A stretch of DNA of 64,000 bases from Paraspadella gotoi (taxonomy: Eukaryota; Animalia; Chaetognatha). This document shows, one piece after another, positions 670-60,514 of this stretch. Within the stretch, counting starts at the first letter, position 1, and every line of letters starts with the position of its first letter. Location of the stretch: contig JBJCIZ010000744.1 in NCBI GenBank assembly GCA_051294375.1, forward strand, positions 1,602,262-1,666,261, in the 5' to 3' direction. The position numbers were made by a program, and so were the translations under genes. Under the pieces are notes generated by a model, which ran no database searches, had not been told where the DNA came from, and was given only the letters and a program-made list of their open reading frames with translations.

Positions 670-3600
670 ATGTCGGAGAAGACGACGACGCAATTGGCGA
701 TCGTGGCCGAGACGACGATCCCCTTCACAGCCTTTCGATGTCGTTGGGTTCCCTCTTCGGCCAGGTGGAGAAAGAGTTGGTGGGAGGGAAGGGGATGGAT
801 GAAATCCGCGCTACCAATAATAAAATTAATCAATTCGTTTAAATAAATAAGGTATCTAGCCAATGACTTTTGGACAGGCTATGGTCGTTTACTGCCTCCA
901 ATCACGCTTAAAAGATAATAACGTAGCAGGACCCCCACAAGCTTTCAATTAAGACTCTCTCTCTCAGTCTTCCCTATTTCTATTGTATTGGAAGCTCTTT
1001 CGGGGCGAGCCGGGATTGCAACGATCAATTGGTAGGGAGAAATAAAGAGGCTGTTATGGCAACGGAGGGACATGTGTGATACCTGGGTTGTGAGGCATCT
1101 CCCGACAGCTGGCGCTCAGGGCTTTGGACCTGCAGTGACCCCACCCCATGTCACTGGCGTGTTTATGCCGACACCATCACGCTTTAACCAGCGTGACCGT
1201 GAGGGGATTGAACCCGGAACTCACGGTTGGTGAACGAGTTTCACACTGTCGCGAAAAGGGGGAAGTTGGAATACACTGCCGCACAAAAAAAAGCGACTGG
1301 TTAGCTCTTAATACACCTTTATTTTTTTTTTCAATTAAAAAAAATATATAAGAGAACTATAGCTCTTTTATAGAGCTATAGATTGGCGGAATAAAAATTA
1401 AAATTAGCAACACAGGAAACGCTTGGTCTCGTTTGACTTTTCTGCCTTTTCTTCTTTTTTCAGAAAAGGCAGAAAAGCCAAAGGAGACAAACCTGCGTTG
1501 TTAGTTTAGCAAAACTTTAAAGTCAGAATGTCAAAACCGAACCTGAGGAAAAAAACTATTTCCATGGGTTAACAAGGTAATGCTTTCGAGTCGTCTTTCG
1601 TTTCTTCCAACCCCCCCCCAAAAAAAAAAAATTCTACAAAGAATGTGATTGTGGTTGTATTTTCGTTTTTTCCTCTTCCAAAAGTAGTTTTATATGGCGG
1701 AGTCGCAGACATGAGTTTTGGTAGTCCCATTTGAGAAACGGACCAGAATGATTAATTTTCGAATACACGTATGTTGCACTGGAATGGGTTGGAAATGGTT
1801 TTCGTAATTAATCGAGAAAACATTTTAAATTAAGTAACTCGTCTTTAATTTCAACGTGACTGGAACTCTACGCACTTCTATTTCTCGCTGGAAGTTCCCC
1901 CCCCCCATGTTATTTTAAAATTGCTATTTTGTTAGTATTTCCACATCCATTATCGTGATTTTATTACAATAATTAAATCTGTTCGAATTTTTAACGATTT
2001 AAAATCATTCGTCTTTTTTTTTTTTTTTTTTCCATAAATGTTTGATTTTCATTTTCAAGAGTCTTTTTCTTTTTGGTTGAATGTTGAAACGCACTGTTTT
2101 TAAATCTCAATGATGGCGTCCGGTGCAGTTCGAAGAGTCTTCAACCAAACCGTCAAACTTCATATGGAAATGACGACTCAGTTGGAGCTCAAGGTGAGTG
2201 GAAGGGTGTGGGGTAGGAGGGAGGAAGAGCGGTGGGGCGGGGCGGGAGAAAGATTGGGACGAAGAGAACGTGGAGGGGTATGTTTGTTAAAGGGCAAACT
2301 TTGTGTCACGAGCCGATGACCAGTTGCAGACCAAAGTGGCAGCGTCGAAAGTCTCCGCGTTGCTTGCGTCCCACGGTACGTCAACAGTTTCACTAGAGAG
2401 AGAGAGGGATTGGGAGGAAGGTCGGGCAAATGAAGATTGAGGTTTATCTGGGAGGGAACTTGAAGAGAAGAAAGTTACTGGCCCAATTGCATAAGGCGTT
2501 CGTCGGGTGATGACACAATAACATATAATTGACAGACAACATTATCATTTCATTGTAAATAAATGACATGAATTAAGATAAAAGAGTTGAGCGAGAGGAG
2601 AGAAATTTTGAAGAAAATCGTGGGTTGGAATTTGAGTGTGCAAAATGTTTATTAAATGTTTATTAAAAATGTTTATTAAAAATGTTATTAAAAATGTTTA
2701 TTAAAAAAATAAGGGACGGAATAAGAGTTGCGAGAGAGAAGAGTGAAGTCAGAAGTGTTGGGTAGGAGAAAGTAGAGAGAAAGAGTGAAGTCAAAAGAGT
2801 GTTGTTGAGTGTTGGACAGAAGTGTTGAATAGGAGAGAGTTCACTTTATCCCCTCCCCCCTTTTCCACCCCTACCTTTTCCACCCTTTCTCCTCATTACC
2901 CCTCTCCCACCTCCTCCCCCTTTTCCCCCCCCCTTCCTTCCCCCCTTCCTTCCCCCCCCCATCCCCGATCAGCGAGTTGATCTAAAACCGGTGAAGCAAA
3001 TCCTCGTCGCCTACGATCCGTGGAAATCGGATTGCGCTTCGGCTCAAACAGTTTTTTTTACAACATCAGCCTCGACGAAGGTGATTACTTCATTCATGAG
3101 TTTATTATTACTGTTATTACTATTTTTTTATTTTATTATTTATTTTTTTAAATTATTAATTATTAAAGACAAACTGTAAAACGCTGATGAAGGCTTGAAA
3201 AACAAGTCGAAACATGTCTGTTTTTATATAAATAAAATTCGTTGCAAACCCAAAAACTTTGTCAATCTCTAAAGATTAAGATAATGGAAGGACCAATCCT
3301 GTTAATATAGGTTCAAGTGGATATTTAACTAGCGACTTACTTAATGGTTTGAAGGTTACTTGGCTGGCTTCTTGGTAAGACTAATGAACGAGAGTTAGGC
3401 TTGCAATGTATTCAAGTATAGATCTGTGAGCTAGCAAGGGCATAGTGGTCCAAACTACTCCATCCCACTCTCTTTTTCTCTTTCTCCCTCTCTCTCCCAA
3501 GTCCGCGAAACGAACCCGGCGGCGAGCATCCGCACCGAGGTCAAATCCGACCAATCGGACCCGACGGTCCGCGTCACCTTCAACGACGGCGCCATCGTTA

Positions 3601-9600: not shown

Positions 9601-12600
9601 ATAATAAGATTAATAAATTTATAATAAAAGATAAATTCGTCTCGTTAGACAAGGAACTCTACGATATGCAAATGGTTTTCTTAGAGGATCAACTCTTTAC
9701 TAAAGAGATCACATGCGTTTAGCTTCACATGCGTTTAGCTTCTTGCCTTATACTGACCCATTGTTTTATTTATGTTTTAGTGTATTTTTAAAACATGTTC
9801 TTCGTCTTTTAAAAAAAACCTCAACTTCTACCACAACTCTCCGAACTATGGCCTCCACCGCCGTCGTGGTCGGCGTCTCCCTCGCCGCCGTCGGACTCGC
9901 CGGTCGCGCGCTCTCTCGTCGTCTCCCGGAACTAGAGAAGAACCTCTCCCTACACGCCAAGCGCCTCGCCGAGAGCGCTCCTTCAAAATACTATCGCGGC
10001 GGTTTCGAGCCTCAAATGTCTCGTCGAGAGGCCAGCCTCGTTTTGGGCATCAGTCCGTCGGCCAGCGAGAGGAAGATCAAAGAGGCGCATCGGAGGATCA
10101 TGTTGGCCAATCATCCCGACAAGGGAGGTTCGCCTTATTTGGCCACTAAGATCAACGAGGCCAAAGATAAACTCGAAGCCGGGCGGAGTTGAAAGAATGG
10201 GTTAATATGTTCATTGGAGGATCGCTTCAGTCTGGTCAGGCCCGTCAGGGAGAGAGACGACGTTATTCTCTCTTCCAAGAGGTCAATCACGATGTGGTAC
10301 ATAGTTAATGTTAATTGTTATATCTATGAAAGTTATCTCTGTAAATCGAGTAATGAAAGGATATTTAAATCCATTTATTTTAATTGCTTTGCTTTACTCT
10401 GTGAAAAAAAAGCTCGTTCGAATGGGACTACTTAAAATAGCTCATGTACTGCGACATCCGAATTTTTTTTAACAAAATGTACAATTGTTGTCCCTTTTCA
10501 TTGTTTTCTCATAACCAAAAAATCTATTTAATATACTGAGTCATGATAGTTTCAGTTTTCAGTTTTATCATAATGGAATACTTTAACGAGAGTCCCGGAG
10601 TCTGGGAGAATTTCTAATCCGTTTTTGCGATTGGATGAGAGAAAAAAAAACTATTTGGGTTGAAACTCTTTTACTCCAATCAAAGATTCAAGCCTCTTAC
10701 TTTTAATGATCTTCATGAGGGAAATGATTCCTGTCACCGCAGAATTGTCGTATTTCAAGGTTGTTACTTGGTTATATAGAATTTATATCAAACATTTTAA
10801 TTTAAAGGGGAATTAAAAAGTAGTGACCATTGGTATATATTCCATCAACGGACAGTGTCCGACGGTTTCCTCGTGTATCCAACTAATAAATTTTTGAATC
10901 TTAACCTCGACGAATCTAATTTCAATTGAATCCTCAAATTCCATTCTTCCATTTTTTTTTCCCTCAAAGATTCGTCGCCGTCGGCGCCGCTCCATCCGGT
11001 TCCGGATCTCTCGGCGTCTTTTCTCTCTCTTCCGGCGCCGTGGATACGGTATCGACGACGACGACTACGACGCCGTTGAGATGCTGCAGTTTCGGGGCGA
11101 CGCCGCTGACGGAGCGTCGGTTGGCCACCGGTGAGGAGGGGAATAAAGGCTTTCTCCAAATATGTTAATCGTCATCATTAAATACTTTATTTTTTTTAAT
11201 AATACGTAATATTCTCTCTTTTCCTCCAGGCGACTTTTCCGGAACCCTTCAACTCTGGGATTTGGAATCCCTCAACTCTCCCGTCAAATCGATGAAGGCG
11301 CACGAAGACGTCGTCAACAGCGTCGATGGCGTAGGAGGAGGAGGATCATCGAGACGGTTGGTCACCGGTAAGTACAGTCAGGTTGAGTTAATCTCATTTG
11401 CATATTGTCGTCTTTGAATTTGTGTGGATAAATATCTATTCATTTACCTTAAAGGCTTAATATTGTTATTTCCTCTCGGCAAATTATTGTTTGTATTAAG
11501 TTCACTTATCAGTAATCCAATTGAAGCTCTAAATATCATAAACTCCTCATACCATATCAACTTATTACACTTGTCGTTTCTGCCCAATCTTCTCTCTTCA
11601 ATTCGTCACCCCAGGTAGTCGCGACGGTCGAGTTAAACTCTGGGATCCTCGCCTCAGTTCGTCGTCGACGTCAGCGGCGATCGTCGTCTCGGCGTCAGAA
11701 GGAAGCGGACGAGATTGTTGGAGCGTCGCTTTCGGAGATGGAGGCGACGTCGTTGCCGCCGGGTGGGTGAAAGAAAAAGGGAGGGCTGAGGGCCGAAGTT
11801 GTGGGTGAGGTCAGAGAGAAACTGCCCAGCGGCGATATAAATATTCTATGGCAACAGCCGGGTTGCCTGTGATGCCCATTGGGATGGGGCATCTCACTGT
11901 TGGCTTTGGGGGCTTCCGACCCTCAGTGACGCCTCCAGTCACTGGCGCGGTTACCCTAGGACGGTCTCGCTTTGCCAACGCAGAGGGAAGTCATTAGGAC
12001 TGTGGATGGAACACTACGCCTGGGATGGTGTGTTCCCCCTCTGAGCCAATGGATTTGGCTGACGGATGGTGGACGTGAGGCGGTGTGAATATACCGCCAC
12101 AATTCCTTTATTTTTTTTTCGGTATCTGTATTGTTATTTGTATTTATATTTTTGTAAATTGTTTTATTTATTAAATATATTTATTTATATTATTTAACTT
12201 TATTAAATATATTTATTTATATTATTTAACTTTGCAGTTACGACAACGGAGACGTAAAGATCTACGATCTTCGATCCGTCGCCGTCGCGTGGGAAACAAA
12301 TATTCAATCCGGAGTTTGTTCTTTGGGTATTAAAATAATTTTACTATGAATTAAACACGTTGAGATTGGTTAATGGTTATACAGATATATAAATGATTGT
12401 GGGTCCAAGGCCTTCTTCCGTCTCGCAAGATAATAACCGCAAGATAATAACCAGTCACTGCAAGCTTTCTCAATTAATTTCCTTTTGTTCTTTTAAGTCT
12501 TCTTTTTACTTTTATTAGGTTTGTCTCATTTATGCTATACTAAAATCCACCAACCGTTCATCAGCGGCCATTGGTTCAGGAGGCTAGTCATTGGCTTCCC

Positions 12601-22286: not shown

Positions 22287-24937
22287 ATGTGTTCTAAACG
22301 CGAATCGGAATCGACGAAGCGTTTGATCTTCAGTCGATGCTTCATGAACCGATTGGCGCCGCCCGACGCCGCCTACGTCCCCACCGAGTTCGAACATCTC
22401 GCCAACATCTTCTCCCATGGATTCTGCGTCGTCCCGGCGCTAGCGGGGATGCTGCATCTGTTAAGGATGTCGGGTACTAGTACTGGTTGCTGTTTTTTAA
22501 TTATGTTAATATAGTTTTTGTTATTAATAAAAAAAAACATCAAACGAATGCGATTGTAATTTTTTGTTATTTGAATTCTTCAAATTTAAGAATTTAATTT
22601 AATTTAATTTAATTTCCTCAAATTATTTACATTTTGGAAGGTTGATTTTGGTAATAAGAAACATTTCATAGACTCCTTATTTAAACACTAATTAAATATT
22701 AATTAAACATTAATTATTCGTCTCTATCTTCCTTCGTCTTCCTCTCACAACTCCCCCTTCATCAACAGGCTCTTCCTCTTCCCCCCTTCACTTCGAAGCG
22801 GCCTTCGTCTACGGCGTCGCCCTCGTCGGCCTCTTCTCTGTCTCCACCGCCTTTCACGCCCTCAGTTATCACAGGGGATACAAGACTCACTACGGGAAGG
22901 TGAGATCACCGCCGTCAGAGGGACTCGTTAATTCGGGGGGGGGGAGGAGAGATTCCATTTTTTTTGCTCCATTTGACGACTAAGTTTAGGAGGTGTTGGG
23001 GGTGGTTCAGTTTAGGGTTAGGTTTTTTTTTTTCTGAAATAAAAGAAACAATTTAACAGTTAAAGCGATAAAAAGATAAAAACGATAAAATTTAGGTGAG
23101 TGAGCTCATGACTTATAATTTTTATTTTCTCCACTAATCATTTTTTCGCTCATTTTTGATTATATTTTTTTCTGATAAGAACTTCTATTTTAATTTTTTT
23201 TTTACCTCAATTTTTTTTTTTTTTCCACTTTCCGTTTTACTTCTTTTTTCTTTCTTTTTATTTTTCTGTCCCCTTCTCCTTCTTCTTCTCTCTTCATTTT
23301 CCTTCTCTTCTTCTCATTTTCTTCTTCCTACTCTTTTAATTTCTTTCTCTCCTTCCTATCCTTCCTCCAGGATCATCCTCTATCCAATCTCCTTCTCTCC
23401 CGCTGGATTTCTCCCGCCCTCACGGAACGCCTTCAAGAGGCGTTTCACATTGGCGACCGCGCCGTCATTTACTTCTTCATCGCCGCGTCCTACACGCCTT
23501 GGCTAATACTTAGAGAGGTTTTAATATACTTATGAAATTGGTACAACCAATATAAAAATTATCCATTCATTTAATAAATAAGCTATCTTGCCCCTGACTT
23601 TGGACAGGCTTTGGTGGTTTAAGGCCTCCATCACTCTTACAAGATAATGACATAGCAGGTCCCTGCAAGCTTTATATATTAACTGTTATAAAAATTGTTA
23701 TAATAAATGCTAAATTGCTATTATAATGCAAGCAATCCCATGGCTTGTGGCATAGCGGCATAGCGGGTCTTCTTGCTCGAATGAGTTAAATTTGCAATTC
23801 TATAACGGAATTGATATTTGGAATGAGTTGAATCTTGACTTTCTAAAGTAGATAATCGCAGACCGCAATTCTAGTCTTCCTTCGCTTCTACATATTGTCT
23901 GGAAAAAAAAAATGGCAGAAGTTACTAAATGATTTAGTTTCAGCATGACTATTAATTATTCCTAATTTAAACCCATCGTCTAAATTTGCTTTTTGAAGTT
24001 AATAAACGACAAGCTCACAACCGCTTTATGCAAATGAGTTTTAAATCCTAAAAATAAATTGTGTTTGTTATTACTTCTGCCCCCTGTCGCCACCCTCTAC
24101 CAAACAGGTGGGCGAGGTCGGCGCTTCCATGCGTTGGATGATCTGGGTCCTCGCCGCCGTCGGCACCGCTTATCAGTATTGCTTCCACGAGCGGTTCAAA
24201 TGGTAATACCTTTTTCAATTTACCCTTCTTCCCCGGCCCTCTCAATCTCTCGCTTTTCTCAACCTCACCCAGGCTGGACACCCTGATCTACCTGGGAGTG
24301 GCCGTTCTTCCCGCTCTCGTTCTTACCCTCTTCATGACGCCGCCCGATGGGCTGGAGGAACTCGCTTGCGGCGGCATCGTTTACATTTTAGGCAAGCTTC
24401 TCCTTTTCTCTAAAAAAACAGATTTAAAGATATTTGAGTTCTTTTTCTTTTTTAATATACTTACACTACATTGTCATTAAAGTTCATTTTTATGACAATC
24501 TCGTCGATAAAATCATCTACATTTCGATGTGATCACGTCACTGTTATACTAAGTCATGTCATTAATTTCGGCATGTCGCTAACGTAAAATTAAATTGTTT
24601 CAACCAATATAAAAATTCATTATTAATTAAGCTATCTTACCCCTGACATAGGACAGGCCTGCTTCCTTTTCACAAAATAATAACATAGCAGGACCCTGAA
24701 TGTCATTTTACTCTCATTATACTCCGTTCCTTAAAGTTGGTAATAAATATTAGTTTTTTAAAAAAAGAACAACATTTTTCATAAGGCGTGATCTTCTTCA
24801 AATGCGACGGCCGCATCCCCTGCGCACACGCCATCTGGCACCTGTTCGTTTTCGTCGGCGCATCTGTTCACTACTATGCCGTTTGTCGGCACCTGTTGAC
24901 TCTGGCCTCGCCACCCGGCTCCGTGGAGACTCCTTGA
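22287..24937 (+). CDS. MMD: Monocyte-to-macrophage differentiation factor (PAQR / haemolysin-III family), 6 exons
   Basis: Exons ~22287-22473, 22769-22899, 23371-23517, 24108-24202, 24273-24391, 24786-24937. Motifs [68 protein letters not shown]. The last intron is GC-AG. Confidence 0.92.
23584..23646 (-). ncRNA. Type-P5 twister ribozyme fold, family A, intact, antisense in an MMD intron
   Basis: 63 nt identical to the reverse complement of 60088-60150; the surrounding element spans ~23530-23673. Confidence 0.82.
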
Positions 24938-26593: not shown

Positions 26594-29500
26594 ATGGAGT
26601 TGTCCTCCGCCGCGTCTCCCGCTCCAACCGCTCCAACCGCTCCAACCGCTCCAACTCCAGCGTTGCTCCTCGACATGGTCCACTCGGCGATCCGCTCGAC
26701 GCTGGAGAGACTTGGGCTCCTCGACGACGTGGAGGTCGTCGCCGACCCAGTTGACGAGAAGATTCTGGTCACTTTGAAGGCGAGTGTCACGTGACAAATG
26801 TGCTCTCCTTTCTTTCTTCACCTTTTTATTTCTTACAATCATTTAAATTTGTATCTTTGTGGACTAAAATCCACCAACCGTTCATCAGCGGCCATTGGTG
26901 CCGGAGGCAAGTCATTCGCCTCCCAACCCAAAGGTCCGGGGTTCTAGCCCGGTGGTCGTCTGGCAGTTAAGAGGGACGGGGCGCTTAACCCGCCTGTAAC
27001 ATGGTGTTACAGCCTGATCCGAAGCTCAGGGACTGCTTATATTGAACGGTTCTGTCACTAACTCATAACAATAATTACTGTCTCTTCAGTCTTCTAGTTT
27101 TCTGAATTTGCAAATATTTGTTTCGTATCATTTGGAATTGACAGATAAAGTCAGAAATTTGCTTTTAATTATCCTCATATGGCAATGGGAGGAATGCCTG
27201 TGATACCCGGGGCGCGGGATAGCTCACCATCTGGCGTAGGGGCTGCGGACCCTCAGTGACTGTTTCCCGTTACTGGCATGTTTAGACCGGCTCCGTCACA
27301 TTTAAGGAATTGAACCTGGGACGCACGGCTGTAACGAGATGATTTGGCCTGCTCAGCCATTGAGATGAGGCTGCCACACCCAACAAATTTCTCTTTCTCT
27401 TTTCCTCTTTAAAGTTTCACATCTGAGTTTCCTTGGTCGCTTATTAAATGCCTCACTTAGTGATTTCACACTCCAGTTTTTCTTTTTTTGTCACTGTTAC
27501 ACTTGTAACAAGATATTATTTATGTAGCTCGATATATGTACAAATTCCAAAACTTAAGATAAAAAAGATAAATAGTTTTAAAATACCCAAAATCTTTTCT
27601 CTTTTTAAGCTCAATGTAATAAAATTCTTTACTCAGTCGACCTCCGCTCGCTCAGTCAAGATCGAACGCGAGTCTGCTAACAACAACAACAACTCCGTCG
27701 AGGGACTCGGGCTTCCTCGGCGCCGCGACGCCGCTCCGAATTCCGGCGTCGACGCCACTTTTGAAAAAGATCGGAAGGTCTCCTCGTTAAAAGACTCATT
27801 ACGGATCGTCGGTGTCAACCCTGATGTTCCAAACGACGTCGATGTCAAGTCTAGTCTTCCAAACGTCGTGAAAGAAAAAGCCAAAGGAAAGATCTCTAGT
27901 CTCAAGGTGGAATCCAACGCTGCGGCCGACGACGACAACGACGACAACTTTGTGGGCGAAATCGATTTTTTCGACGACGACGACATCGAACGCTTCTCCG
28001 CAGCCGACGCTTCAGCCGACGCCGTACCCGCAGCCGTACCCGCAGCCTCCGCCGCAGCGATGTCGCCGGTCGTGCGCCTGGAGCGGCTGACGCCGTCCGC
28101 TTGGCTAGTGGGCGTGGCCGCCTCTGAAGCGGCGAGAACGCCGGAACAAACGATAACGACTTTGGAGGCGGAAACGAGACAGATCTCTGCAGTAGGTTAT
28201 TACTATCTGTTATTCGGGTTGGACGTTGGAAAATGAATCCATTTACTACTTAATGGATTATCCATCCAATATTTATATTTATAAGGAGCTTTCAAATATA
28301 ATTCTGAACACGGAACTGATTTATTTCGTTTTGTTAAAAAAATGAAAGGTTTTATATTTAAGCACTTTCAAAAAAGAATTAATAAATAGGCTATATAACT
28401 TTTATAACCGTAATAGATATTTTTCGATAAATAAAAGTCAATCTCAAATTTTTTGTTCAGATTCCCCTCTTTCATCACAACCTGCACCTCCTCCACCTCC
28501 TCCTCCACCGACAACTTCGCACCCTCATCAAATCAAACGCTCCGTCGGACGCCCTCGCAAAGATGCCACACCCACTCCGACTTTGCTCCCCCAGCCTTTC
28601 AAACGTACCCTCGGACGCCCGCGTAAGGACGCCCCTCGTCCGCCGCCGCCGCCGCCGAAGGTCTACCTCTGCGCCGAGTGTGACTTTTCCTCACCCAAAC
28701 GTAGCCTCGTCACTCTGCACCGGAAAGATCGTCACAAGACGTTGGACGCATTGGTGAAGGACCGACTGGAGGTCGTCCCCAAACCGGTCGACAAGACCCC
28801 GAGGTTTCTCTGCTCTCAGTGTTCTTACATGACGTGAGTTGGGTGCGTTTTTCGAAGAAAATGGGTTGGCTGGGGTTGTGTTCAAGGGGCGACTAAGTTT
28901 CGTGTGGTGTGGGAAAGAAGAAAAAGAAGTAACTGAGAACTAGGTCTACATTTTTTTTCAGTTGATAAGCTTTCCTATTTCTTTGTCAAAAAAATGGATT
29001 TTTTTTCTTACCTTATTGATAAGATTAAATTAAAATGATAGAATAAAATCTGAAACGGGTAATCCACTTAAACTTAGTCTTTGACCTTCCAAACAGTAAC
29101 AGATCCAGGTATTTCAAAGCCCACTTGGCCAAACACGCTGGAGAATATCTCTACAAATGTCCTTCTTGCGATTTTGGAACTCGATCCAAAGAAAGTTTAA
29201 GGACTCATAAAATTTCGATACACACGGAAGAGAAAAGGTGATTACGTGGTAGTACAACTTGAAGCTGCCTCACTCGCTAGTCGGTGAGATACTCCGCGCC
29301 CTGCGTATCACCGTCAATCCAACCGTTGTCATAATTTGCTATTAAGACTAAAAAGGCTAACAGATTTTAAATAAGGAAAATGAACTGTAGTTTCCTCTTC
29401 CAATAGATTCAAATGTAACTACTGCGACTTCGCTTGCAAACTACCCGCCGGTTTGAAGATGCACCTCAAGCGCATTCATTTCGACGACAGGGGAAAAAAA

Positions 29501-32021
29501 TTTAGCTGCCATCTCTGCGAATACCGTACCATGGAAAAGTGCAATCTCAAGGTTATGATTTATGAAATAAATTAATACTTGTCAAATTGAATCTGTTAAA
29601 ATAAAATATTATTTATTATATAATAAATATTATATTATAATATATAAAAAGCTAATCACTCAGAGAGGGTTTGTTTGAAATTCTTATGGATCCTGCTATG
29701 TTATTATCTTGTAAAAGGGATAAAGTCCTGAACCCAGCAATTCCTTGTCATTGTCTAAAGTCAAGGTCAAGATGTCGACGTTCACCCCGCCTATAAACAT
29801 GACTCTTTCAGTCGTGACACGTTGGCTCATTGAGTAATGAGTAATCCCATCAGCTCATGACAATTAGGTACTGGGATCAATACCCAAAGGTACCTACCCT
29901 GCGGGAAGCTTGAGGGCGGCCGTAACCTGCCTTGGGGGGCATGGAAAACTTTTAAGCTTGGTTTCAAGCCCAAGACCTATTCCATTGCTGCCGAGGGGCA
30001 AAGAAGATTTGAATACTATTTACTAAATATTAGTTTAGTGTTTTACTGTTTAGCCTACTTAGCGCCTTCATCACACTAATGTGGCGGTATATTCACACTG
30101 CCTCACGACCACCATCGTTCAACAAGATCCATTTGCTCAGAGGGGAAACACACCATCCCAGGCGTTGTGTTCCCTCTGAGTTCCCTCTGAGTTGGAAAAG
30201 CGAGACTGTCTGAGGGTAACCGCGCCAGTGACTGGAGGCGTCACTGAGGGTCGGAAGCCCCCAAAGCCAACAGTGAGATGCCCCATCCCAATGGGCATCA
30301 CAGGCAACCCGGTTGTTGCCGTACTGGGTAACATCGGACTCACTTAGTGTAGGTACCATTGGGGATCGATCCGAGTACCTAATGGTCAAGAGAGGATGAC
30401 AATACTCAATGAGCCACCGGGTCACGACTAAAAGTCATGTTTATAGGCGGGGTGACCTTGGCACAATGCCCGACTATACTGCTTTCGTTTATTCAATAAG
30501 TTATAATTCGAGTTTCACAAATATCTGTGTCGTGACTGATGTTCAAACATTTCAGTATCAGGATGTCTAAGAGTCCAAAGGTCTTTTGCTTCGGGGACAG
30601 AGGCGTCACTATTATTAGTGAATTGGCTACTAAATTCGCTAGGCTATCAATGAAAAATTACCACTCATTCGTCATTTTGGTTTTTCCCCTCATTCACAGG
30701 TTCACCTCAGAATTCACGGTGATCGTGAGTTCAAATGCGATCGATGTCCCAAAGAATTTTACAACATGAAAGAACTTCGTCGCCACCTCCTATTTCACGA
30801 GGGGAAGCACAAGGTGCATCCCTGTCTCGAGTGCGACGCCAGGTTTCAGGTGCCCGAAGGATTCTGGTCATTGCTTGACCCAATGGTCAGTTGTCGCTGT
30901 CACATTAAATGGTCAAATTATGGTTGCTTCTATGTCAATATTTTGCTGCGTGGTACTGATTGTGACCCGAATTCGGTTCTTTTGTTTCGTATTTGTTCTG
31001 ATACTGTGTTCGGAACCTTTCCTTTTTGGCGACGTGCGAGTTTGGCGGGATGAGACTGACAAATAGACAAGCGATAGTGTCAATTTTACAACTATCTTGA
31101 TCCTGTTAATATGTCAACTGTTTACAATTGTCATTGTCAGAGAGAATGATTTTCTACATACAAAGTCCTACACCGAGTTGTGAGTACCGTTATGTATCAA
31201 AATGGCTCAACTTTCATTGGGATTATTTTTATTATATATTTCAAGGCCAAAAGCATGCTTCGCCGACACATGTGGGTCCACACCGGAAAAAAGAACTTCA
31301 CCTGCTACGTTTGCGGCGCCGGTTTTTCTTGCACGATCAAATTCCAGCGGCATTTCCGGAAGAAGCATCCGGATAAGATGCCCTTTTTCTGTCCGACTTG
31401 TAACTTTTCAACCGAAATGTTCTGGTAATGTTGAGCATTGTTTAAAAATCTATGTTTGGCGTTGTTTTGTTCGTATATATATCTTTTCAATCTCATTTGC
31501 ATATTGTCGTATTTACTTTATCGGGTATATTTGCTTTATCTTTTATAGGCGATGAGTCATAAGCTATTTTTAGGCTGTCTTTTTTTGTGTATGATTTTTT
31601 TTCGATTCACTATCAATATTTACTCTATACAATTCTTAATTTACTTAAATTAAATTTTGGGGGTTTTAAAGTATGTCTTAAAGTGTTTCGGTTTTCTGCC
31701 GCTTTTATATTCCTCGCTCTAACGCCTTTCGGTAGTACCGTCACGTTTTGCCAAGAATATTTTTAAGTGGGGTTTTATCAACCCTGTTTTCAAGTCACCT
31801 GGTACCATCTCTCTATATTTAAATATTTATCCGTCTTCCAGAACTTTTATTCCCCCCCCTCTTTCCCCCCTTCACACCGCAGTACCTTCACTGCCCACCA
31901 AGCGAGCGCGGAGCATCTCGAGGCTGCCGCCGCGGCTGGCGCGGAGCCGACGTCTACGATCTCTCCAAGAATCTCTTCGCCAGGAGTTTTGCGTCTGCGG
32001 AGGAGATCAGGGGGATGTTGA
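26594..32021 (+). CDS. AT-hook plus multi-C2H2 zinc-finger protein (paralog 1), about 8 coding exons
   Basis: GRPRK AT-hooks at ~28545-28630 and tandem C2H2 fingers (CAECDFS..H, CPSCDF..H, CNYCDF..H, CDRCPK..H, CYVCG..H). Exon 1 ends at a GC donor (26780). Confidence 0.8.
26865..27088 (+). mobile_element. tRNA-derived SINE-like element carrying a twister (family C)
   Basis: 73-nt tRNA-like module at 26888-26960 (acceptor GCGGCCA/TGGTCGT, T-arm CCGGG..CCCGG). Other copies: 12541-12605 (+, head only) and ~47825-47941 (-, ribozyme core deleted). Confidence 0.72.
26963..27036 (+). ncRNA. Type-P5 twister ribozyme fold, family C, sense in intron 1 of zinc-finger paralog 1
   Basis: GCAGU(P5) UAA GAGG GA CGG GGCGCU U^AA CCC GC CUGUAAC-AUGGU-GUUACAG(P3) C CUGA U CCG AAGC UCAG GG ACUGC. 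Predicted cut between 26986 and 26987. Confidence 0.82.
27231..27301 (-). ncRNA. Twister core, family B variant, 5' strand of P5 lost, tRNA-like head upstream
   Basis: Minus strand AUGU GA CGG AGCCGGUC U^AA ACAU GC CAGUAAC..GUCACUG A GGG U CCG CAGC CCC. A-box-like TGGCTGAGCAGG and B-box GGTTCAATTCC lie at ~27305-27360. Confidence 0.68.
29903..29983 (+). ncRNA. Degenerate type-P5 twister, family D
   Basis: AGG G[A+T1' missing] CGGCCG UAA CCU GC CUUGGGGG..CUUUUAAG C UUGG U UUC AAGC CCAA. It follows a tRNA-like head (29782-29897) that is repeated inverted at 30340-30457. Confidence 0.5.
30191..30271 (+). ncRNA. Type-P5 twister ribozyme fold, family B, sense in a zinc-finger gene intron
   Basis: Near-identical to 11899-11979. 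T1' is CUG (G-U wobble) and the P1 palindrome is altered to UCUGAGGG. Element spans ~30080-30320. Confidence 0.72.
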
Positions 32022-38712: not shown

Positions 38713-41188
38713 ATGGCAGTTCCGTCTCTCCGCGCGGAGATCGGTTCCGACTGCTACTCGGCCATGCACTGTCACGCCCTCTCCACGGATCGCGAGGAGG
38801 TCATGGGTCTTTTGCTCGGGGTCATCGAGGGACCCAAGGTCAAAGTCCTCATGTCGATGGCGTTGATTCGATCCGACAAGAGAAAGGACAGGGTGGAGAT
38901 CCCGCCAGAGGTCATGGGTCAAGTCTCCACCAAAGTGGAGCGGAGGGCGGAAGAGATTGGGCTCGCCGGGAAGCTGCAGGTTGTGGGGCAATGTGGGGGG
39001 GGGGGTTAAAACTAAGTTGTGGCGGGGGAGAGTTAGGGTATTAAATTAAAAATATAGACTTATGCTTAGTATTTTGGGATTATTTTCATTGCGTTAATAA
39101 TTAGGAGAAGTGAGAAAGTGAGAGCTATTTTTTGGCAAATATTTAAAAGACAGAGAGAGAGAGAGTGAAAAAAAAAGAGAGAGAGATAAAAGGAGAAATG
39201 GAAAGTGGTGAAGACAGCCGAGTCTGAATCTGAGTCTGAATCTGCACCGATCGCCTCAATTTTTCTGAATTCGTGTTGAACAAAAAAAGGTTTATTAATA
39301 ATGTTAATAATATTAATCCAAATCAGTTTCTAGCTTATACTTAATAAATTAAAATTAAATTTAATTGTAGCCAAAAGGGAAATAAAAGAGGACTCTATAT
39401 AGTAAATATATATATATATACATACTATATATCTTTCCCGCCCCAGGTCGTGGGTTGGTATCACAGTCACCCACACATAACGTCTCTTCCTTCCCACGTT
39501 GACCTCGGAACTCAGGCCAACTACCAGATGTTGGATCGAAGTTTCATCGGCCTCATTTTCTCTGTTTTTAACGAGAGCAAAGGTATCAAGATTCTCATTT
39601 ATTATTGATAGATGCATAACGTTATCTGCTCTTAAAAAATATTTGAATAATCAATGTAATTTCCAAGTTTTAGTCTCATAACAAGCCCTAATTAGCGGCA
39701 TTGTCGCCGTATAACAACATCGTCGCCATGTAACTCTATTCTCTTCAATCTAACGGCATTCCCAAAAAAATTACGGCATTCTCTACAATCTAACGGCATT
39801 CCCACCAAAATTACGGCATTCTCTACAATCTAACGGCATTCCCACCAAAATTACGGCATTCTCTACAATCTAACGGCATTCCCACCAAAATGACGGCATT
39901 CTCTACAATCTAACGGCATATTCCTCAACTCTTCCTTCAGCTAACGTCGCGGTGGACGAGTTGTGTTGCTTTCAATCTCGACGCGATGATTCCGGCCTCC
40001 GACGTCAGGTCGTCCCTTTCGACGTCTTCCCCACCGCTCTCCTCTTGAAGGAGGAAGGTTAATAATACTTATTTAAATATAATAATAAAGAAATACTATT
40101 AAAAATGCTATATTGATAATATATTTACAAAATCATTGTTAAAAAAAAATAGTAAAATAAACCTGGTAAGAAAACAGTATTTCAAGAGATGAGAAATAAT
40201 CTAATCTACTACATTATGTAAATGTTATTAAAGAAATCAATCTCGTTTGAAATGAATAAACATAACATTATCTTTTTATTCAATAATTGACTTTGGACAA
40301 GCTATAGTGGGTTTAGGCCTCCATCCCACTCACAAGACAATAACATGGCAGGACCCTGTAATCAAGACCATTTTAATCAAGACTCGCTCACAGTGCTTGG
40401 CCCTCCTGGCTCCCTTTTAATGAAGTGGTATCGAATTTGTAAATGTTTCAATTGTATAAGAGGACCACTCCCTTAAGGAATAGTTATATAAGAATCGTGT
40501 TTCATTAAACTGCATTTATGAAAAGGCGTGGATTCCCTTGTGACGGCCCAAGCCCTCGGCGCCGTCCCAGCCTTCCTCGATCTCTACATCCACGAAGAGA
40601 AAGGCGCCTTTGACAAGGCCGACGGGATTGGAGACGGGAGCGGTGATGGACAGATCGGGCCCAAGACGGACCGGAGGTATCTCATCCCCGCCACATAGTT
40701 TTTGACTCTCTTTGGCTCTCTTCTCCAAATGCGCTTTATTTTAGTTTCGTGACTTTTAGTTTCTTAATCCCGGAACCTTATTTTTTAACCCTTACCCTAA
40801 TCTTTAACCCTAATCTTTAATTTAATTTTTAATCCTAAAAACTCATCTAATTTCGAATTCTCTTCCTTTCTTCTCTCTATCTCCCGCCCTTACCTTCCCC
40901 TCTTTATTTTCTCCCCTTCCTCCCTCGCCACTCTCCCTCTCCCTCCCAATTTTCTTCACCTCTTTCCCCCCCCCTTTTTCCCCTCCTCCCAGCTTCTTCC
41001 GCTTCGTCCACAACGCCGCCCACTTCTCTCTCGCCGTCGGCGGAATCGCCGAGACTCTCTACGTCTCCTACGCGTCGGGGCTGCGGCGTCGTCGGGCCAC
41101 GGCGGAGAATAGGATCGAGGCGCTGCAGGGATACCTGCGGCAGCTGCGGGAGAGAGTCGAGAACAGACCCGTCGCGGGTCATTCCTGA
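38713..41188 (+). CDS. BRCC3: Lys-63-specific deubiquitinase BRCC36 (JAMM/MPN+), 5 exons
   Basis: HALSTDREEVMGLLLG, RSDKRKDRVEI, VVGWYHSHPHITSLPSHVDLGTQANYQMLDRSFIGLIFSVF. Confidence 0.93.
39738..39920. repeat. 40-bp minisatellite, about 4.5 copies, in a BRCC36 intron
   Basis: ATTCTCTACAATCTAACGGCATTCCCACCAAAATTACGGC in tandem. Confidence 0.9.
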
Positions 41189-41562: not shown

Positions 41563-42903
41563 ATGTCGGAGCCGGGAATGCCGATGGATTGGCGGTCACC
41601 GGCGAACAGAGAGGCCGTCCGGAAGAAAATCGCTGAAGCCATGCAGAGCGCGGGATCGCCTCCGCAGGTGAGGGGAGGGGAAGGGGAGGGGACTTGAGGG
41701 AAGGAAAAAGCGAAGGTATGTCTCTGCGGAGATTCGGAGAGGGAGACCTGACAAAAATATAACCAGTCTTGATTGAAAGCTTGCAGGGACCTGCTATGTC
41801 ATTATCCTGTAAGAGTGATTGAGGCCTTAAACCACCAAAGTTATGGGCAAGATAGCTTATTCATTAATTGAAAGGATACTTTTACATTGGTTGTACCAAT
41901 TTCATAAAAAAATGAAATATTTAGAGATAGAACTTGGACTTTTCCGACGTTGGTCATTCTCCTCATACCCTAAAATTGGGGTCAGTTTTGTTATTCTCTC
42001 CTTAAAATTCCGATTTTTCCACTCCTCCCCCCAAACGTTCCAGTCTCACTCTCCAGAATCAATGGAGGAGCAGATGTTCATGCGATCAAAGACTCCGGAG
42101 GAATACATGAACTTCGTGGCGAGGTTGTTGAGGTTGCTGCACGAGCGGAACCAGAGGAACCAAGCGCAAATGGCCAATCAGGGTGAATTGTAGAGACCGG
42201 GGGGGGGGGAAAGGGGGGGAAAGCTTTTGAGATAATAATTCGGTTAACGAGGTTCCTTTAGGTTCATTTTACTTCCATTAGCAAGTAAAGAAATCATTTT
42301 GAAATGTTGTAATCTGTATTTTTTTCTACTATACACCTTACATGAATTATCGTGCTTCTAATTGTGCTCCTCATCAATCATTAATTCATCAATTCAAATT
42401 TATTCATTTACTCAAGGTAGGCCATAGCTATAATTTAAATGCTAATGTATACGGCGTTAAAATAATATATCATGAGCATAGAGTATAGTGAGGGTACAAG
42501 CCTAATTATAATTATTATATTTTTATATCGTTGACGTTTAGTCAAATAACGAGGGTAAATAATAAGTGGCAAAGTATTTGGTTGACAATAGTTTTATTAA
42601 TGACGTACAATGATTAGGGTGATGACATAGGTAACGATGACACGATAACAAAGGCTAAGACAAAGGCGATGACAATATTAAACAGTTCAATAATTATTTG
42701 AAGAAGGGTTCTTCTAGTAACAAAATTCAATGACTCGTAAAAACGTTTAATAATGAGCGAGCTTTCTTCAAGAGGTACGACTGAAAGGCCGGTCACAAAA
42801 AATGACCAAGAAATGTTTTAGTTGTCGAATCACGGCCAAAATCATGAAAGAGAGAGGAGAGAGAAATGACCTCAAAAAGGTCACCGATCACCAGGCGAAT
42901 TTT

Positions 42904-42968: not shown

Positions 42969-45621
42969 CTTACCGCCCTTTCTCTCTTCAATCTCTCTCG
43001 CTCTCTTCATTCTCTCATTTCTTTTCTCGCATCTGTTTATAATCGTCAATATATGTATATATATAATATATATATGTGTATATATAATATATATACATAT
43101 CTGTGTCTCTACAACTTATTATTATTGATTTTTTTTTAATGTCATTAATCAATATTTCGCCCCCCAAGGTCCGTCTACCCAAATGCGTCCAGACTCTACT
43201 CCGATCGGCGCCCTGCAGATGATGACCTGCCAACCCGGAGCCGGCACCGGAGCAACGCCGCCGCAGAACATGCCGCCGCAGTTTCAGGGCGGAGTGGGTC
43301 AGGCGGGTCCGGGCATGATGATGGGAAGCGGTGGTCAGCCGGGCATGATGCAGACCGGCGGGCAGGTGAGGGTTAAAAGGGTGATGGGGTGAACATTTCA
43401 AGTAGATACTATATAGTATAGTATAGTATAATGTATAGGGATTGATGATTAAGGAAGTACCAAGCAGCATAAATTCAGTTTACTATCCCTCTTAACTATG
43501 GGCCAAGCCACAATCTAATTATATAATAATAACATGACATAATAACATTAATATATTTAAATATTATAAAATACTGAGAAAAGTATTTCCCAATTTTCAT
43601 AATATCACAAGATAGCTTATTTATTAAATTATTAAATAATTTATTTTATTGGTTGTCCCATTTTTCATCTCATCCAAACCTTAATCCCCCGCGCGCTCCA
43701 TTGCTTCATCTCCTAATCTCCCCCCCCCCATCTTCCCCCCATCTTCCCCCCCCAATCTTCCCCCCCCCTTCAAGCCCTCTTCGGCTCCTGGTCAACCCGT
43801 CGTCCCCGCGGCGTCACCGTCGGTCCCCCTCGCGGTCCCTCTCAGTCCAACCTGACCCCTCAACAGCAGATGTATCAGCAGCGAATGTCGCAGCAGCGGC
43901 TGGCCATGCATCATCGCGCATTGGCGGCGCAGCAACAGCAGCAACAGTCCCAGCAACAGCAACAGCAGCGGGACGGCGGAGCAGCGGGGATGATGACGAT
44001 GCATCCCTCGTCGACGGCGCAGTCGATGCAGGTGCGAGATGCGGGATTGGTCTGACGGCGTGGGTCGGACATATAGAGAGACTCGAGGCTAATATAATTA
44101 GTTATTATTCGATTATTAGCTAATTAACTCGTAAATGTATTTAATTGAAGACGTTTTGCGGATTACAACAGTCATTCCTCATTTCACAGTCTCGTCCCCC
44201 TTATCCCTCTTCCGCGGCGACGATGTCTTCCAGCGGCGGCGGCCCCGGAGGCCCCGCCCCGACCGTCGCGATTTCCTCTTGCGGGATTCCCATGAGTTCC
44301 TTGTCGACCGCGGTGCATTCGCCGTCGGGCGGCGCCGCGGCGGCCGTCGGTGGCGCCCCGATCTCCCATCAAATGATTCGATCCCCGGCCAATTACAATC
44401 ATTTCCTTCCGTCGCCCACTGGAGGCGCCGTCCAGGGACCCGGGAGCAATTTGGGGAAGATGATGCACTCGCCGGCCTCGTCGGGGTTTCAAGGTGTTTG
44501 AAGGATGTCGTCGAGTCTTTGGACAGAGATTATGTGTGATTGTATGAGTCCGTGTGTGGGAGTGCGGAGGGCGCTTGAAACTAATTTAGTAGGAGAGGCT
44601 GAGGGCAAATATTGTAGGGCATCATTCAATAATTGTAATTGGACAGTTATTAGGAAACCCGTTTTTATTATGCTTTTAATTCAGTAAAAAAGGGAAAACT
44701 ATTAAAACTAAACGATAAAAAGACGCACTTATTTTCCGTTAACACCATAACCAATTCAGGTCCGCCTTCAGTGGGATCCACCTCCGCCGGTCCGCCCTCA
44801 GTAGAGAAGCCCTCCAATGCTCCGTCGCCCGGAAATCCGCTGAGCACGCCGCGGCAACCCTCGGTCGCCTCGCCGGCGCCGGACGTGGACCCTCAGTGTC
44901 AGCAGAAGCTGCAGGAGCTTGCCGCAGCTTACATGGAGCCTCTGAGGTTGGTCTCATTTAAGAGGTAGATTATTAATCTTGCAACTCGGACCTCCATTTG
45001 ATTCCCTCCCGTCTCAAAAAGAAAATGGATCTACCTTCGCGAAAGCAGCGAGACAGAATCGGACGCGAAGAAGCAAAAGGAGCTCTCTAAGATGCGAACT
45101 CTCCTCCGCCTCCTCGAGGACAAGAATCCGCAAAAGTCGACGACCATCAATCTCCTCGTCCTTCAAAAATGCGAGAACGTCCTCCACAACATGCTCCACA
45201 ATCCCAAGGCTGCCGCGGGCGGCGGCGGCGGAGCGGCGGCTCTGGCTGCCTCGCGCCCGCCGCCCGTCGTCGACCCGACTCCGCCGGCCAAGGATCAGCA
45301 GTTGGGTCAGAGTTTGTTGGAAGCGTTGGTCGAGGGATTCAAGAAGCCGGGAGGAGGGGCCAAAGGGGCTTCGGCCAATCACAGGTCAGAGGTAGTGAGG
45401 GAGGATGGAGAGGGAAGAGAAGTCGGGGATTATGCTGAAAAAAGTTATTATAAGTACATTTTTACAATTGCATTAACAAAGTTTGATTTTATTTTGCAAC
45501 GAATTTTATTTTAAAAGAGCAGACATGTTTCGGCTCACAATACGAGCCTTCATCAGCGCACATGAGTTATGAACTTGATACAAGTTTTTAGTTAAAGTCA
45601 AATGTAATTATTTATTTATTT

Positions 45622-45695
<74 letters not shown>

Positions 45696-46548
45696 TTTAA
45701 CTAAAAACTTGTATCAAGTTCATAACTCATGTGCGCTGATGAAGGCTCGTATTGTGAGCCGAAACATGTCTGCTCTTTTAAAATAAAATTCGTTGCAAAA
45801 TAAAATCAAACTTTGTTAATCTCTCAAACAACGAAAAAGAAAGGATAATTACCATGAATACAATTGCATTGAATATGTGTATGGATACGTAAAGTATATT
45901 TTAAATTTAACCAAAATAAAAAATACCCTCAAACTACTAAATTTAATTTCGATATGCTCTCAATTTGCCGTTTGTGAAATAACGACAATATGCAAATGAT
46001 ATTAAGGAATCTTATAAAGTTTTAGATATATCGAATCGATTTTCGACATTATTATGTTTCCTTCCCGAATTACTGCAGAGATTAATTAATTAGTGCGTCA
46101 AAGTGAGGAATTATCCACGCGATTTAAAATATTCATCGAAAGTTCTCGTGATAAAATTTTAAGGCTAAGCGCGACCTTCGGTCCCGCGGCGGCCAACCTT
46201 CTCGGTCCGCGACCTCGAGCCCCGAGTCCTCCGCTCGCCAAGAGACTAAAATTGGAGGAGGAGGAGAAGCAGAAGGCGAAGAAACGATGCAAAGTTCCAC
46301 ACGTTTTGCAGGTCAGTCTGTCTGTCACACCAAGTGGGGGGATACAGGGTGAAGACTCAGGACTGAGATGGTAATGGAGATTTTGTGAGGAGTGGTTTTC
46401 AGATATTTTATATTTTGCCTACTTTTTTACGTTTCGATTATTTAATTATTTTATCAGTTAACCATTTAATCAGTTAACCATCAAAAAGAAAGAAAAATAT
46501 AAAAGCAACGATTTATTTGCTGAGCGTGGCCTCCCAGGCCACAGAGAC

Positions 46549-46579
<31 letters not shown>

Positions 46580-47152: not shown

Positions 47153-47450
47153 AGAGAGAGAGAGAGAAAAAGACTGTCAAACAGAGACTTAAAGACAGAG
47201 ACAGTGAAAAAGTCGCTCGCATTGATATTCAGTCCTTGACGCGTTTTCGTTACAAATTTTAGATTATTAAATTCTTCCTTCATATTCGAATTTTGATTTT
47301 TCTTATTTTTTCGTATTTATTATTTTTTTTCTCGCTCAAACTTTCAGATTTACAATTTTATAGAAATTAGAATAAAAAAAAACGATTCGAGTGTTTCTTC
47401 CGAAGCCATCACCAGTTCCGATGTTCGCCTCCACGAAGCTCTAGACTTTG

Positions 47451-47525
<75 letters not shown>

Positions 47526-47539
47526 CCTCCCTCCCCAAA

Positions 47540-50830: not shown

Positions 50831-53036
<2,206 letters not shown>

Positions 53037-58600: not shown

Positions 58601-59278
58601 AAGAATAGTTGGAGATTAGAATATTTTTAGTAATATTTTTTTTATTTTTAATTATTTTGGTAATAAGCTTCTTACAGAGAAGCGAAGCCGGTGTTTTCTA
58701 TCAGCGCAATGTCGTATTGACAGTGGGAAAGTAAAAAGTGCATTTATGATAGGCCTATGGCTATTAGGGACTATTTTAAGATTTATGAATCGTGCAGTTT
58801 TTTATGATGCAATTGATCTTTCCGATTCGATGCTCTTTTCTTTGTCGATCTCTCAATTCACACGTGCCCATATTCTTCAATGTCCCTCTTTCGGGAAACC
58901 GACGAACTTGTGATTTTCTTTTGTCGTCGAGTCCCATTGTGTTATTGTGTTATTGTACTTTCGTCCATGAATGAATCTCCCAGATTTTTATTTTCATAAT
59001 GAAATATTTGGATGAAAACTAAAAATTTGATACAAGAGATTTAAAAAATGCCAAATGCCAATTAACCTTTGCTTTTTTTTTTTTTGCAATAAAGAAAAAA
59101 GCGGATGTGATCCTTTTTTTATTCACAAACTGTCGCTCCGTTTTTGTTTACATTCGTCGTTCAATTTTTCAACGCTTTTTTAGTGTCGAAAAAAATAACC
59201 AACACCCCGTGACATTCTTTTTGTCTACGTCCGAGAGTCTCTCTCTCTCTCTCCCTCTCTCTCTCACACACTTCGACC

Positions 59279-60514
59279 ATGCCCCGCGTCCGCTACATCG
59301 GGCGCGACCCGATCTACTTTGGCAAAACTCTCTTCGACATCTGCGCCCGATTGGCGGGCAACGGCGTTGGACGGGTCGTCACTCGGGCCTGCGCGCAGGG
59401 GGAACCCAAAGGCGGAAAGATTTTCAGGTGCGACAATAATCTTATTTGGATATTGTCGTAATTTGGTTTATGCTTAAAGATTTAGATTTCTTTCCCTTTA
59501 TGAATACATCTAAGATTTGAAACTTGACAAAGAGGTGCAATGGTTTTTCTAAACTATAAACAAATGCAATTAAAGATTTTGAATTCCACATCTTGTCTCT
59601 TCGTGTCGTTCCATGTTTTTCCCTGTCCAAACTCAGAATCACCGACTGCGCCTACGACTTGACTCCCAGCGGCGAAGCGGCCAAGTTCCGCGTCGGTCGA
59701 GCCTTTGGTTTGGAACTTGGTAAGTTATGGTTGTTGTCCTTGTCGTCTTTATTCAAGCTGATCTCGCTTGGTCATTCGTGTATCTCGTTTGAATAGATCG
59801 CCGATAAACTCAAAAAACCATGAGTACCGCCTAAATGCTAAAAATCTCGGTTCACTTTGTGATTACATTCTTTTATGAAATTGGTACTACCAATATAAAA
59901 ATTATCCATTCATTTAATAAATGAGCTATCTTTCCCCTGGCTTTGGTGGTTTAAGGCCTCCATCACTCTTACAAGATATTGACGTAGCAGGTCCCTGCAA
60001 TCTTTCAATCAAGACTGTCTCACAGTCTCGTTTACTCACTCCCAGAGAACCTGGCTTCCCTATCAATGAAGCTGTCTAATATGTCATTATCTTGTAAGAG
60101 TGATGGAGGCCTTAAACCACCAAAGCCTGTCCAAAGTCAGGGGCAAGATAGCTTATTTATTAAATGAATGGATAATTTTTATATTGGTTGTACCAATTTC
60201 ATTTCAAAGAAAGTTTCAATTTTTGAAAAGACCACTCTCTTAAGTACATTATTTGTTGATTATAAAATATTTGTACAAGTTTCAATAATAAAACCTTTCC
60301 CCCCCCAATCGCGTCTTCATCTTCAGGCCCCAACGGCCTCGTGGATCGCCCCGTGGAGATCGTCGACGCGGACCTCGACGATTGGAGACTCGTTCGCCGC
60401 AAAGACGAAGACGAATTCGTCGCTGAGATCGAAAAACTCAAGAAAATTCACCCCAAAGTTTATTCGGCGTCGACGCCGCCGCCTGTGCTGGAGATGGCGT
60501 TGAAGCGAAAGTAG
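59279..60514 (+). CDS. MRPS34: Mitochondrial ribosomal protein mS34, 3 exons
   Basis: Exons 59279-59427, 59637-59719, 60327-60514. YIGR...FGKTLFDI..L...GVGRVVTR and DWRLVRRKDE..F resemble arthropod mRpS34. Confidence 0.8.
59875..60202. mobile_element. Head-to-head inverted pair of family A repeats
   Basis: Left copy (twister on -, P4/L4 deleted) and right copy (twister on +, intact). Further family A copies at ~812-957, 12405-12475, 12610-12665, 24590-24700, 29688-29773, 40287-40395, 41764-41905, 62810-62955. Confidence 0.8.
60088..60150 (+). ncRNA. Type-P5 twister ribozyme fold, family A, intact, sense in MRPS34 intron 2
   Basis: UAUCUUG(P5) UAA GAGU(P2') GA UGG(T1') AGGCCU(P1) U^AA ACC(P2) AC(T2) CAAAG(P3) C CUG(P4) U CCA(T1) AAGU(T2') CAG(P4') GGG CAAGAUA(P5'). 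Predicted cut between 60113 and 60114. Confidence 0.82.

Follow-up and report, generated by a model that had tools for sequence, protein, structure and literature searches.

What would a self-cleaving RNA gain from a helix that a single molecule can hardly close? The question arises in 64,000 nucleotides of the chaetognath Paraspadella gotoi (GenBank assembly GCA_051294375.1, contig JBJCIZ010000744.1, positions 1,602,262 to 1,666,261, forward strand), a stretch called here the window, the first letter of which is position 1. It contains short repeats of six families (A to E, with a B-variant), whose cores, that of D excepted, appear by their fold to be genuine twister ribozymes of type P5, predicted to cleave themselves. 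Type P5 is the permutation in which stem P1 is capped and the ends of the RNA lie in stem P5, and its topology matches that of a type I hammerhead with a capped stem III. Here the linker that should form P1, between strand T1' of the T1 pseudoknot and the cleavage site, is a palindrome without a loop. An earlier note on this DNA had taken such linkers as the mark of candidate ribozymes gated by dimerization. We find that the palindromes go beyond chance, with two exceptions (family D, which is incomplete, and one copy of B, where the palindrome is broken). P1 may thus be kept for pairing between two RNAs, which would make a double twister cutting better than the monomer; on the models used here, we see the case for this as evenly poised.

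Palindromes at the predicted cleavage site

The linkers read AGGCCU (family A), GGCGCU (C), CGGCCG (D), UCCUAGGG (B), UGUCGGCA (B-variant) and AGCCGGUC (E), all six strings being found as the earlier note had quoted them, in the same places or next to them. In each of the five families where P2 and T1 are both paired (A, B, B-variant, C and E) the linker is 6 to 8 nucleotides long, self-complementary and loop-less. To have extended this to every twister family was too broad, family D being missed by the descriptor scan presented below, with P2 strands unpaired in register. In family B the palindrome stands in the 11.9 kb copy (11954-11961) and fails in the second one (30209-30216), where G lies opposite A at the centre, which leaves the family state of B uncertain. 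For A the comparison of linkers extends to four public runs; for the other five families it is confined to the window.

Because any hairpin is palindromic in its outer part, while a single strand cannot pair its own centre, the centre pair is the informative position. It is Watson-Crick in all six families, in three forms (GC, CG, UA, CG and CG in the five-family set). When letters are shuffled within each of the five linkers, the joint chance that all inner positions pair is 1.8e-4. An alignment (A1) of seven related copies, namely B, B-variant, E and their relics, shows that decayed copies hold the linker: its three inner pairs are formed in 84% of cells, compared with 71 to 100% for the helices, and two of the three columns changed on both sides. 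The innermost pair is formed in five of the seven copies (CG in three, UA in two) and unpaired in two. Decay of methylated C as an origin of the CG-to-UA change is weakened by the CpG content of the window, which is not depleted (observed/expected 1.23).

A palindrome would also arise, by construction, if an ordinary P1 hairpin had lost its tip once or twice, the repeats then spreading independently of the ribozyme. Symmetric loss of a hairpin tip does give a loop-less palindrome, and many copies in the window are decayed or coreless. Such a neutral relic would require either separate symmetric deletions or, later on, compensation at as many as three pairs among related families; moreover G60143A, the commonest variant of family A near the core, preserves the fold. 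We regard this origin as very improbable.

Ordinary twisters as controls

How unusual is a P1 without a loop? In viral sequences the canonical type-P5 pattern, allowing a linker of 4 to 30 nucleotides, matched 116 loci; the 88 with T1 paired and P2 paired at four positions of four were kept, and 28 were dropped. The 38 distinct phage linkers are 15 to 26 nucleotides long and all fold as hairpins at -8.3 kcal/mol or lower; none is loop-less. Likewise, the Rfam Twister-P5 consensus has a P1 of at least 3 pairs around 14 further positions, of which the A copy of the window has 0. Together with the differing innermost pairs and the linkers held by decayed copies, the phage control supports the initial proposal of a palindrome maintained so that two RNAs can pair.

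With linkers of 4 to 13 nucleotides, prokaryote genomes gave 81 loci, a single one of which passes, as an ordinary 12-nucleotide hairpin; metagenomes gave 117 loci from 46 of 64 parts, with 122 parses, four of them passing. On one metagenome contig, locus L149 (288-350, plus strand) combines a type-P5 core with a 7-base-pair P4, a 4-base-pair P5 and the 4-nucleotide linker CGCG. Judged from its sequence, the core is convincing, and L149 would be the single independent case of the loop-less palindromic design. Other metagenome candidates were discarded: the P1 of L194 is an ordinary 4-base-pair hairpin; L169 and L204, which lie in coding-like DNA, were judged on visual inspection to match by chance, though the 8-nucleotide linker of L204 is self-complementary; and L215, similar at first look, has a type-P1 layout. 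Two family-shaped patterns found 2 and 1 matches in viral contigs, regarded as chance. As all the search patterns fix much of the core, absence elsewhere is weak evidence. Four further metagenome loci (L120, L135, L197 and L218) display type-P1 twister-like cores resembling the plant form.

Proposed pairing between two RNAs

How could such a palindrome serve a ribozyme? Were the linkers of two RNAs to pair with each other, each active site would combine a 5' half from one molecule, with the P5 strand, P2', the catalytic G and T1', and a 3' half from its partner, with U^AA, P2, T2, P3, P4 and L4, as in the double hammerhead. In a variant, a loop-loop kissing pair would form with no strand exchange. 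The benefit might be that a lone transcript survives to be reverse-transcribed, paired or multimeric transcripts being cut to unit length. In nearest-neighbour calculations on the named folds, the swapped pair is favoured by 11.7 to 13.7 kcal/mol, and closure of P1 inside one RNA costs energy in all four cores considered. Since no intramolecular hairpin is stable here, at variance with the 38 phage linkers, the window cores form a variant of type P5.

A number of observations weigh against such a pair. The energies just given ignore both pseudoknots and kinetics. When dimers are folded freely, the best fold contains the whole linker duplex for A and B-variant, half of the duplex for E and none of it for B and C. 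Shuffled linkers fold into dimers as low as the real one in 2 of 60 cases for B-variant, 9 of 60 for A, 21 of 59 for C, 23 of 60 for E and 45 of 60 for B, so that only the B-variant linker clearly beats its shuffles. The centre taken alone, tested on about four lineages, gives p 0.007 by composition and about 0.03 at the rate of the phages, where linkers of even length have a complementary centre in 10 cases of 25, seven of the ten coming from one lineage. The 30 kb copy of B, one of the two aligned copies with a broken centre, matches the 11.9 kb copy at 95% along 147 nucleotides. Twister copies in the 64-kb window are solitary, none being in tandem, and in run X1 (13,821 contigs placed on 60040-60220) few contigs loop back from the 3' end of family A, 5 at the best-supported joint among those listed; tandem family A units exist and look rare. 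As the earlier note had cautioned, twisters can be active without P1: one deprived of it cuts at almost the wild-type rate (PMC5408937). Nor did the length, stability and flaws of P1 track cleavage when natural twisters were assayed on a large scale, an assay restricted to type P1, in which the 5' strand is free (PMC11662667). For the T-variants of Schistosoma, an effect of P1 composition on activity is reported (PMC8501958).

Much of this would suit a minimal twister working as a monomer, an explanation that we consider possible, if rather unlikely. The linker would then be a shrunken P1 (1 to 3 pairs with a loop of 2 to 4 nucleotides, or unpaired), copies would cut alone, and the matching centres would be a matter of chance and descent. 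P1 is dispensable in the work just cited, and a linker of 6 to 8 nucleotides should span the gap from T1' to the cut site, as deduced from general helix geometry; copies in the window are solitary, about four lineages inform the centre pair, phage centres match fairly often, and the 30 kb B copy is unmatched. Less easily accommodated are the three Watson-Crick centre types (GC, CG and UA), with changes on both sides between related families, and the absence of a stable intramolecular P1 in the model. Furthermore, the phage matches come mostly from one lineage, and with the CpG ratio of the window methyl-C decay is not the default.

Returning to the double twister, the gating of cleavage by dimers, as originally proposed, loses ground to the dispensability of P1 in published twisters, to P1 length and stability untied to activity, to a window without tandem arrays and to a full duplex limited to A and B-variant in the best free folds. 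That natural dimer-gated twisters exist here, SINE-like (resembling short interspersed nuclear elements), near-silent as lone intronic copies and cutting only after exchange of halves through the P1 palindrome, strikes us as doubtful; this strict gating is a subset of the double-twister reading, and an unlikely one. Because twisters do not need P1, lone copies probably retain some activity, and the dimer would more likely be a booster than an on/off gate.

The twister cores

Are these cores twisters at all? A descriptor scan covering both type-P5 and type-P1 layouts, with six block-shuffled windows as control, puts six cores on top, at scores of 29 to 31 (C, B-variant, two copies of A, and the B copies at 11.9 and 30.2 kb). 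Noise in the six shuffles amounts to 0.17 matches per run at score 29 and none at 30 or above. Family E, at 26, is within the noise band and was joined to B and B-variant by flanking homology; the three being related via common flanks, to speak of convergence for all families was an overstatement. Type-P1 readings of the window scored no better than shuffles and were rejected. Rfam at its own cut-offs has no match in the window. Under relaxed thresholds (E<=10), Twister-P5 finds only A copies (60099-60141 and 23593-23635, at 25.8 bits for a cut-off of 37.6), B-variant has a weak twister-P1 match, and families C and E stay unmatched. MAFFT did not bring the cores of all families into register.

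The fold itself is more telling. The catalytic signature combines U^AA at the cut site with a G-A preceding T1' and with U-NNN-AAGY in L4. It is present in A, B, B-variant and C; E has it with one change in L4, and D retains it without P2. The T1 pseudoknot varies on both sides across families (CCA/UGG, CCG/CGG, CGG/CCG), and T2 is either GC/GC or AC/GU. P5, where the ends of the RNA lie, has 6 to 8 pairs in A, B, B-variant and C. P2 is formed at all four positions in E, at three of four in B and B-variant, at two of three in A and C, and at none in D. The 3-nucleotide P2 strand of A and C, with its C-A mismatch, is a further departure from the standard twister core; flaws in P2 are tolerated by type-P1 twisters (PMC11662667). 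From its sequence, the state of family D could be derived from loss of one short G-rich repeat. Across the families, linker length tracks P2: the linker has 6 nucleotides where the P2 strand has 3 (A, C and D), and 8 where it has 4 (B, B-variant and E).

In the alignment of seven related copies the named structure is paired in 83.7% of 208 cells, as against 26 to 48% when slid by 1 to 3 columns, and its covariation score is reached by none of 500 shuffles; as the structure was derived from the same sequences, both controls are biased in its favour. By element, pairs are formed in 71% of cells for P2, 82% for P4, 90.5% for T1, 92% for P3 and 100% for T2.

Family A and its copies

Family A is very abundant: besides run X1, three public runs placed 12,905, 4,684 and 938 contigs on the same interval, the four runs representing three samples at most and their read depth not being a copy number. 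Its P1 is conserved beyond the window, since positions 60099-60142 show no alternative letter at 3% or above in the four runs, which makes the palindrome the majority sequence. G60143A, at 3.5 to 23% of depth in these runs, replaces the U-G pair at the end of P5 by U-A. Among ten copies in the window the linker is exact in six, wobble-compatible in one and decayed in three. A contrast of variants between core and tail is not significant (p 0.07, with five of six tail positions entered).

Copies of A share a sharp 3' end at 60202, followed by unrelated AT-rich flanks, and have ragged 5' ends. Spanning the cut site with a common 3' end, they must have been copied from uncut or re-joined RNA. This would fit a palindrome that serves not cleavage but the joining of two element RNAs, for instance in reverse transcription or template switching, catalysis being independent or lost. 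Retroviral RNA dimers, which are driven by six-base palindromes, offer a precedent, and the shortened, mismatched P2 of A and C could weaken catalysis. Such a role would not account for a palindrome placed exactly at P1, beside the scissile bond, in every family; and the conservation of the catalytic G, U^AA, T1 and T2, accompanied by covariation, speaks for catalysis under selection. We consider it improbable, if somewhat less so than the neutral relic.

The longest A copies (40380-40400 and 60060-60075, both minus) start with a stretch like the element's own 3' end, possibly a terminal redundancy left by a tandem or circular template. Some A and C copies have internal deletions of the twister core, with both flanks kept (59885-60017, minus; 41764-41905, plus; 47825-47941, minus).

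What the elements are

The repeats bearing twisters are about 200 to 330 nucleotides long, with the twister some 100 to 150 nucleotides from the 5' end. In four of eight cores (C, B-variant, E and an 18 kb relic) a B-box-like motif lies 19 to 36 nucleotides before the catalytic G; the background is 3% of random places, for a scanned upstream stretch of 70 nucleotides. Family A has no such motif within 70 nucleotides upstream, ARAGORN called no tRNA at the element heads, and none of nine inserts has a convincing target-site duplication. B-type elements (11847-12101 and 1056-1284, minus; 30080-30323, plus) share a conserved two-hairpin module 3' of the twister, and the 5' and 3' ends of their RNA can pair with G-U wobbles.

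Tail-out inverted pairs are a mark of Penelope-type insertion. Two are found here, formed by the A copies at 59.9 and 60.1 kb (59875-60202) and by the hammerhead repeats at 45.5 and 45.7 kb (45472-45820), hinting at a Penelope-type insertion machinery shared by the twister and hammerhead families. All three minimal ACAUGU hammerheads listed in the earlier note are indeed in the window (Table 1). The 60 kb A copy is intronic, in sense orientation between two MRP-S34-like exons (weak Pfam matches). Of its 43 core bases, 32 are predicted to be paired with the inverted partner in host-strand RNA, so that this intronic copy is no evidence for quiet monomers.

Table 1. Positions of twister and hammerhead features within the 64,000-nucleotide window
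Feature	Position	Strand	Details
Family A type-P5 twister, intact	60088..60150	+	P1 linker 60107-60112; predicted cut U60113/A60114; 3-nt P2 strand; descriptor score 30; Rfam Twister-P5 25.8 bits, sub-threshold; no variant of at least 3% in 60099-60142 (four runs)
Family A twister, second copy	23584..23646	-	Linker 23622-23627; predicted cut 23621/23620; score 30; 100% identity with the 60 kb copy over 123 nt
Family A copy, P4/L4 core deleted	59875..60075	-	Tail-out inverted partner of the 60 kb copy; holds the longer 5' part of the element
Family A core, decayed	40287..40325	-	Linker kept; cut-site U changed; P5 lost; score 25
Family C type-P5 twister, intact	26963..27036	+	Linker 26980-26985; predicted cut 26986/26987; 3-nt P2 strand; score 31
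Family C tRNA-like head	26893..26955 (left end approximate)	+	B-box-like T-loop at 26940; motif scan; no ARAGORN tRNA
Family B element, 255 nt	11847..12101	-	Twister 11899-11979; linker 11954-11961; predicted cut 11953/11952; score 30; antisense between WD40-like exons (weak Pfam matches); ends set from the 30 kb copy
Family B, second copy	30080..30323	+	Linker 30209-30216, G opposite A at centre, a point against the double twister; sense between zinc-finger exons
B-variant element	1056..1284	-	Twister 1108-1192; linker 1166-1173; predicted cut 1165/1164; B-box-like head (1214); score 31
Family E element	27178..27385	-	Decayed twister 27232-27312 (L4 change, weak P5); linker 27285-27292; B-box-like head 27316; score 26
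Family D twister-like relic	29900..29975	+	P3, P4, L4 and palindromic linker 29917-29922 present; P2 unpaired in register; no descriptor match
Minimal type I hammerhead, ACAUGU stem III	3178..3224	+	Comparison case
Tail-out inverted repeat pair, each with a minimal ACAUGU hammerhead	45472..45820	.	131-nt arms, 99% complementary; comparison case

Gene density in this eukaryotic window is high, with FYVE, SRR1, DnaJ, RING, C2H2 zinc-finger, JAB, Med15, Ras, MRP-S34 and PRMT domains; no reverse transcriptase or endonuclease domain was found in the 127 reading frames scanned, a subset of those of the window. Between 3435 and 63543 the domain matches in scanned frames are all on the plus strand, for more than 10 genes, several of them tightly spaced near 4.8-10.2 kb, a layout that may be an operon-like, trans-spliced arrangement.

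Comparison with known systems

If pairing controls cleavage, a second, unrelated ribozyme fold would have come to the dimer solution of minimal hammerheads. A general rule would then suggest itself for ribozymes carried by short retroelements, the lone transcript being spared until copied, and the "dispensable" P1 of twisters would acquire a biological role, as part of a compact concentration-sensing self-cleaver. Were it truly gated, the system would stand beside retrozymes as their twister counterpart, with a concentration switch of its own. Even without gating, type-P5 twisters in animal repeats are likely under-counted, because the present cores fall below the Rfam cut-off though one family is very abundant.

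The closest catalytic relative is the type-P5 twister itself (Rfam RF02684, clan CL00120), with which the window cores share strand order, U^AA, the catalytic G-A, T1 and T2, P2, P4 and L4. They differ from it in that the Rfam consensus and the 38 phage examples cap P1 with a hairpin of 15 to 26 nucleotides, in place of a loop-less linker of 6 to 8, in the 3-nucleotide P2 strand of A and C, and in scores that are all below the Rfam cut-off. In the open full-text literature we found neither a natural dimeric twister nor a tRNA-headed twister SINE, a search that covered neither subscription papers nor the original twister alignments, where short-P1 examples may exist. In the parts available, PMC10085705, bioRxiv 2022.07.19.500677 and bioRxiv 10.64898/2026.07.22.740005 have nothing on dimeric twisters, a term search of the last one did not return the word "twister", and the dimer mentioned for a twister in PMC5408937 is described there as a crystal artefact.

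Among retroelements with internal ribozymes, the Perere-3 T-variant twisters of Schistosoma mansoni are also weak-P1 twisters of an animal (PMC8501958). By contrast with the window elements, which are of type P5, internal, and supply both halves of P1 themselves, these are of type P1, located at the 5' end of an element coding for reverse transcriptase, with one half of P1 contributed by the target site. The Sm-alpha-type SINE-like elements of Schistosoma are short, non-coding, high-copy repeats in which an RNA polymerase III promoter directly precedes an internal hammerhead (PMC6765202); here, in several families, a promoter-like head has a twister in the place of the hammerhead. The non-LTR (long terminal repeat) retrozymes of metazoa are likewise short, non-coding, high-copy repeats with an internal ribozyme (PMC7229834; bioRxiv 10.64898/2026.07.22.740005). 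Theirs is a type I hammerhead in tandem units, giving linear and circular unit RNAs, whereas no tandem array was seen in the window; the ribozyme being a twister and the units solitary, we have not filed these elements as retrozymes.

The design itself recalls that of the minimal type I hammerheads which act as dimers in Penelope-like elements, newt satellite 2 and axolotl retrozymes. In both systems the helix at the cut site is a short palindrome in the loop-capped permutation, and the host is a mobile repeat; such hammerheads are also found in this very window. For the hammerheads of Penelope-like elements it is established that a palindromic stem III lets them act as dimers (PMC6765202), and those of axolotl retrozymes cleave to 6% and 22% as monomers, and much more as dimers (PMC7229834). 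The differences are that the catalytic fold is another one, that stem III is needed there while twisters do not need P1, that the elements are often in tandem there and solitary here, and that the gain from dimers is measured there and predicted here. In design, then, the elements of Paraspadella gotoi resemble double-hammerhead retroelements, and their twisters are candidates for a class of ribozymes acting as dimers.

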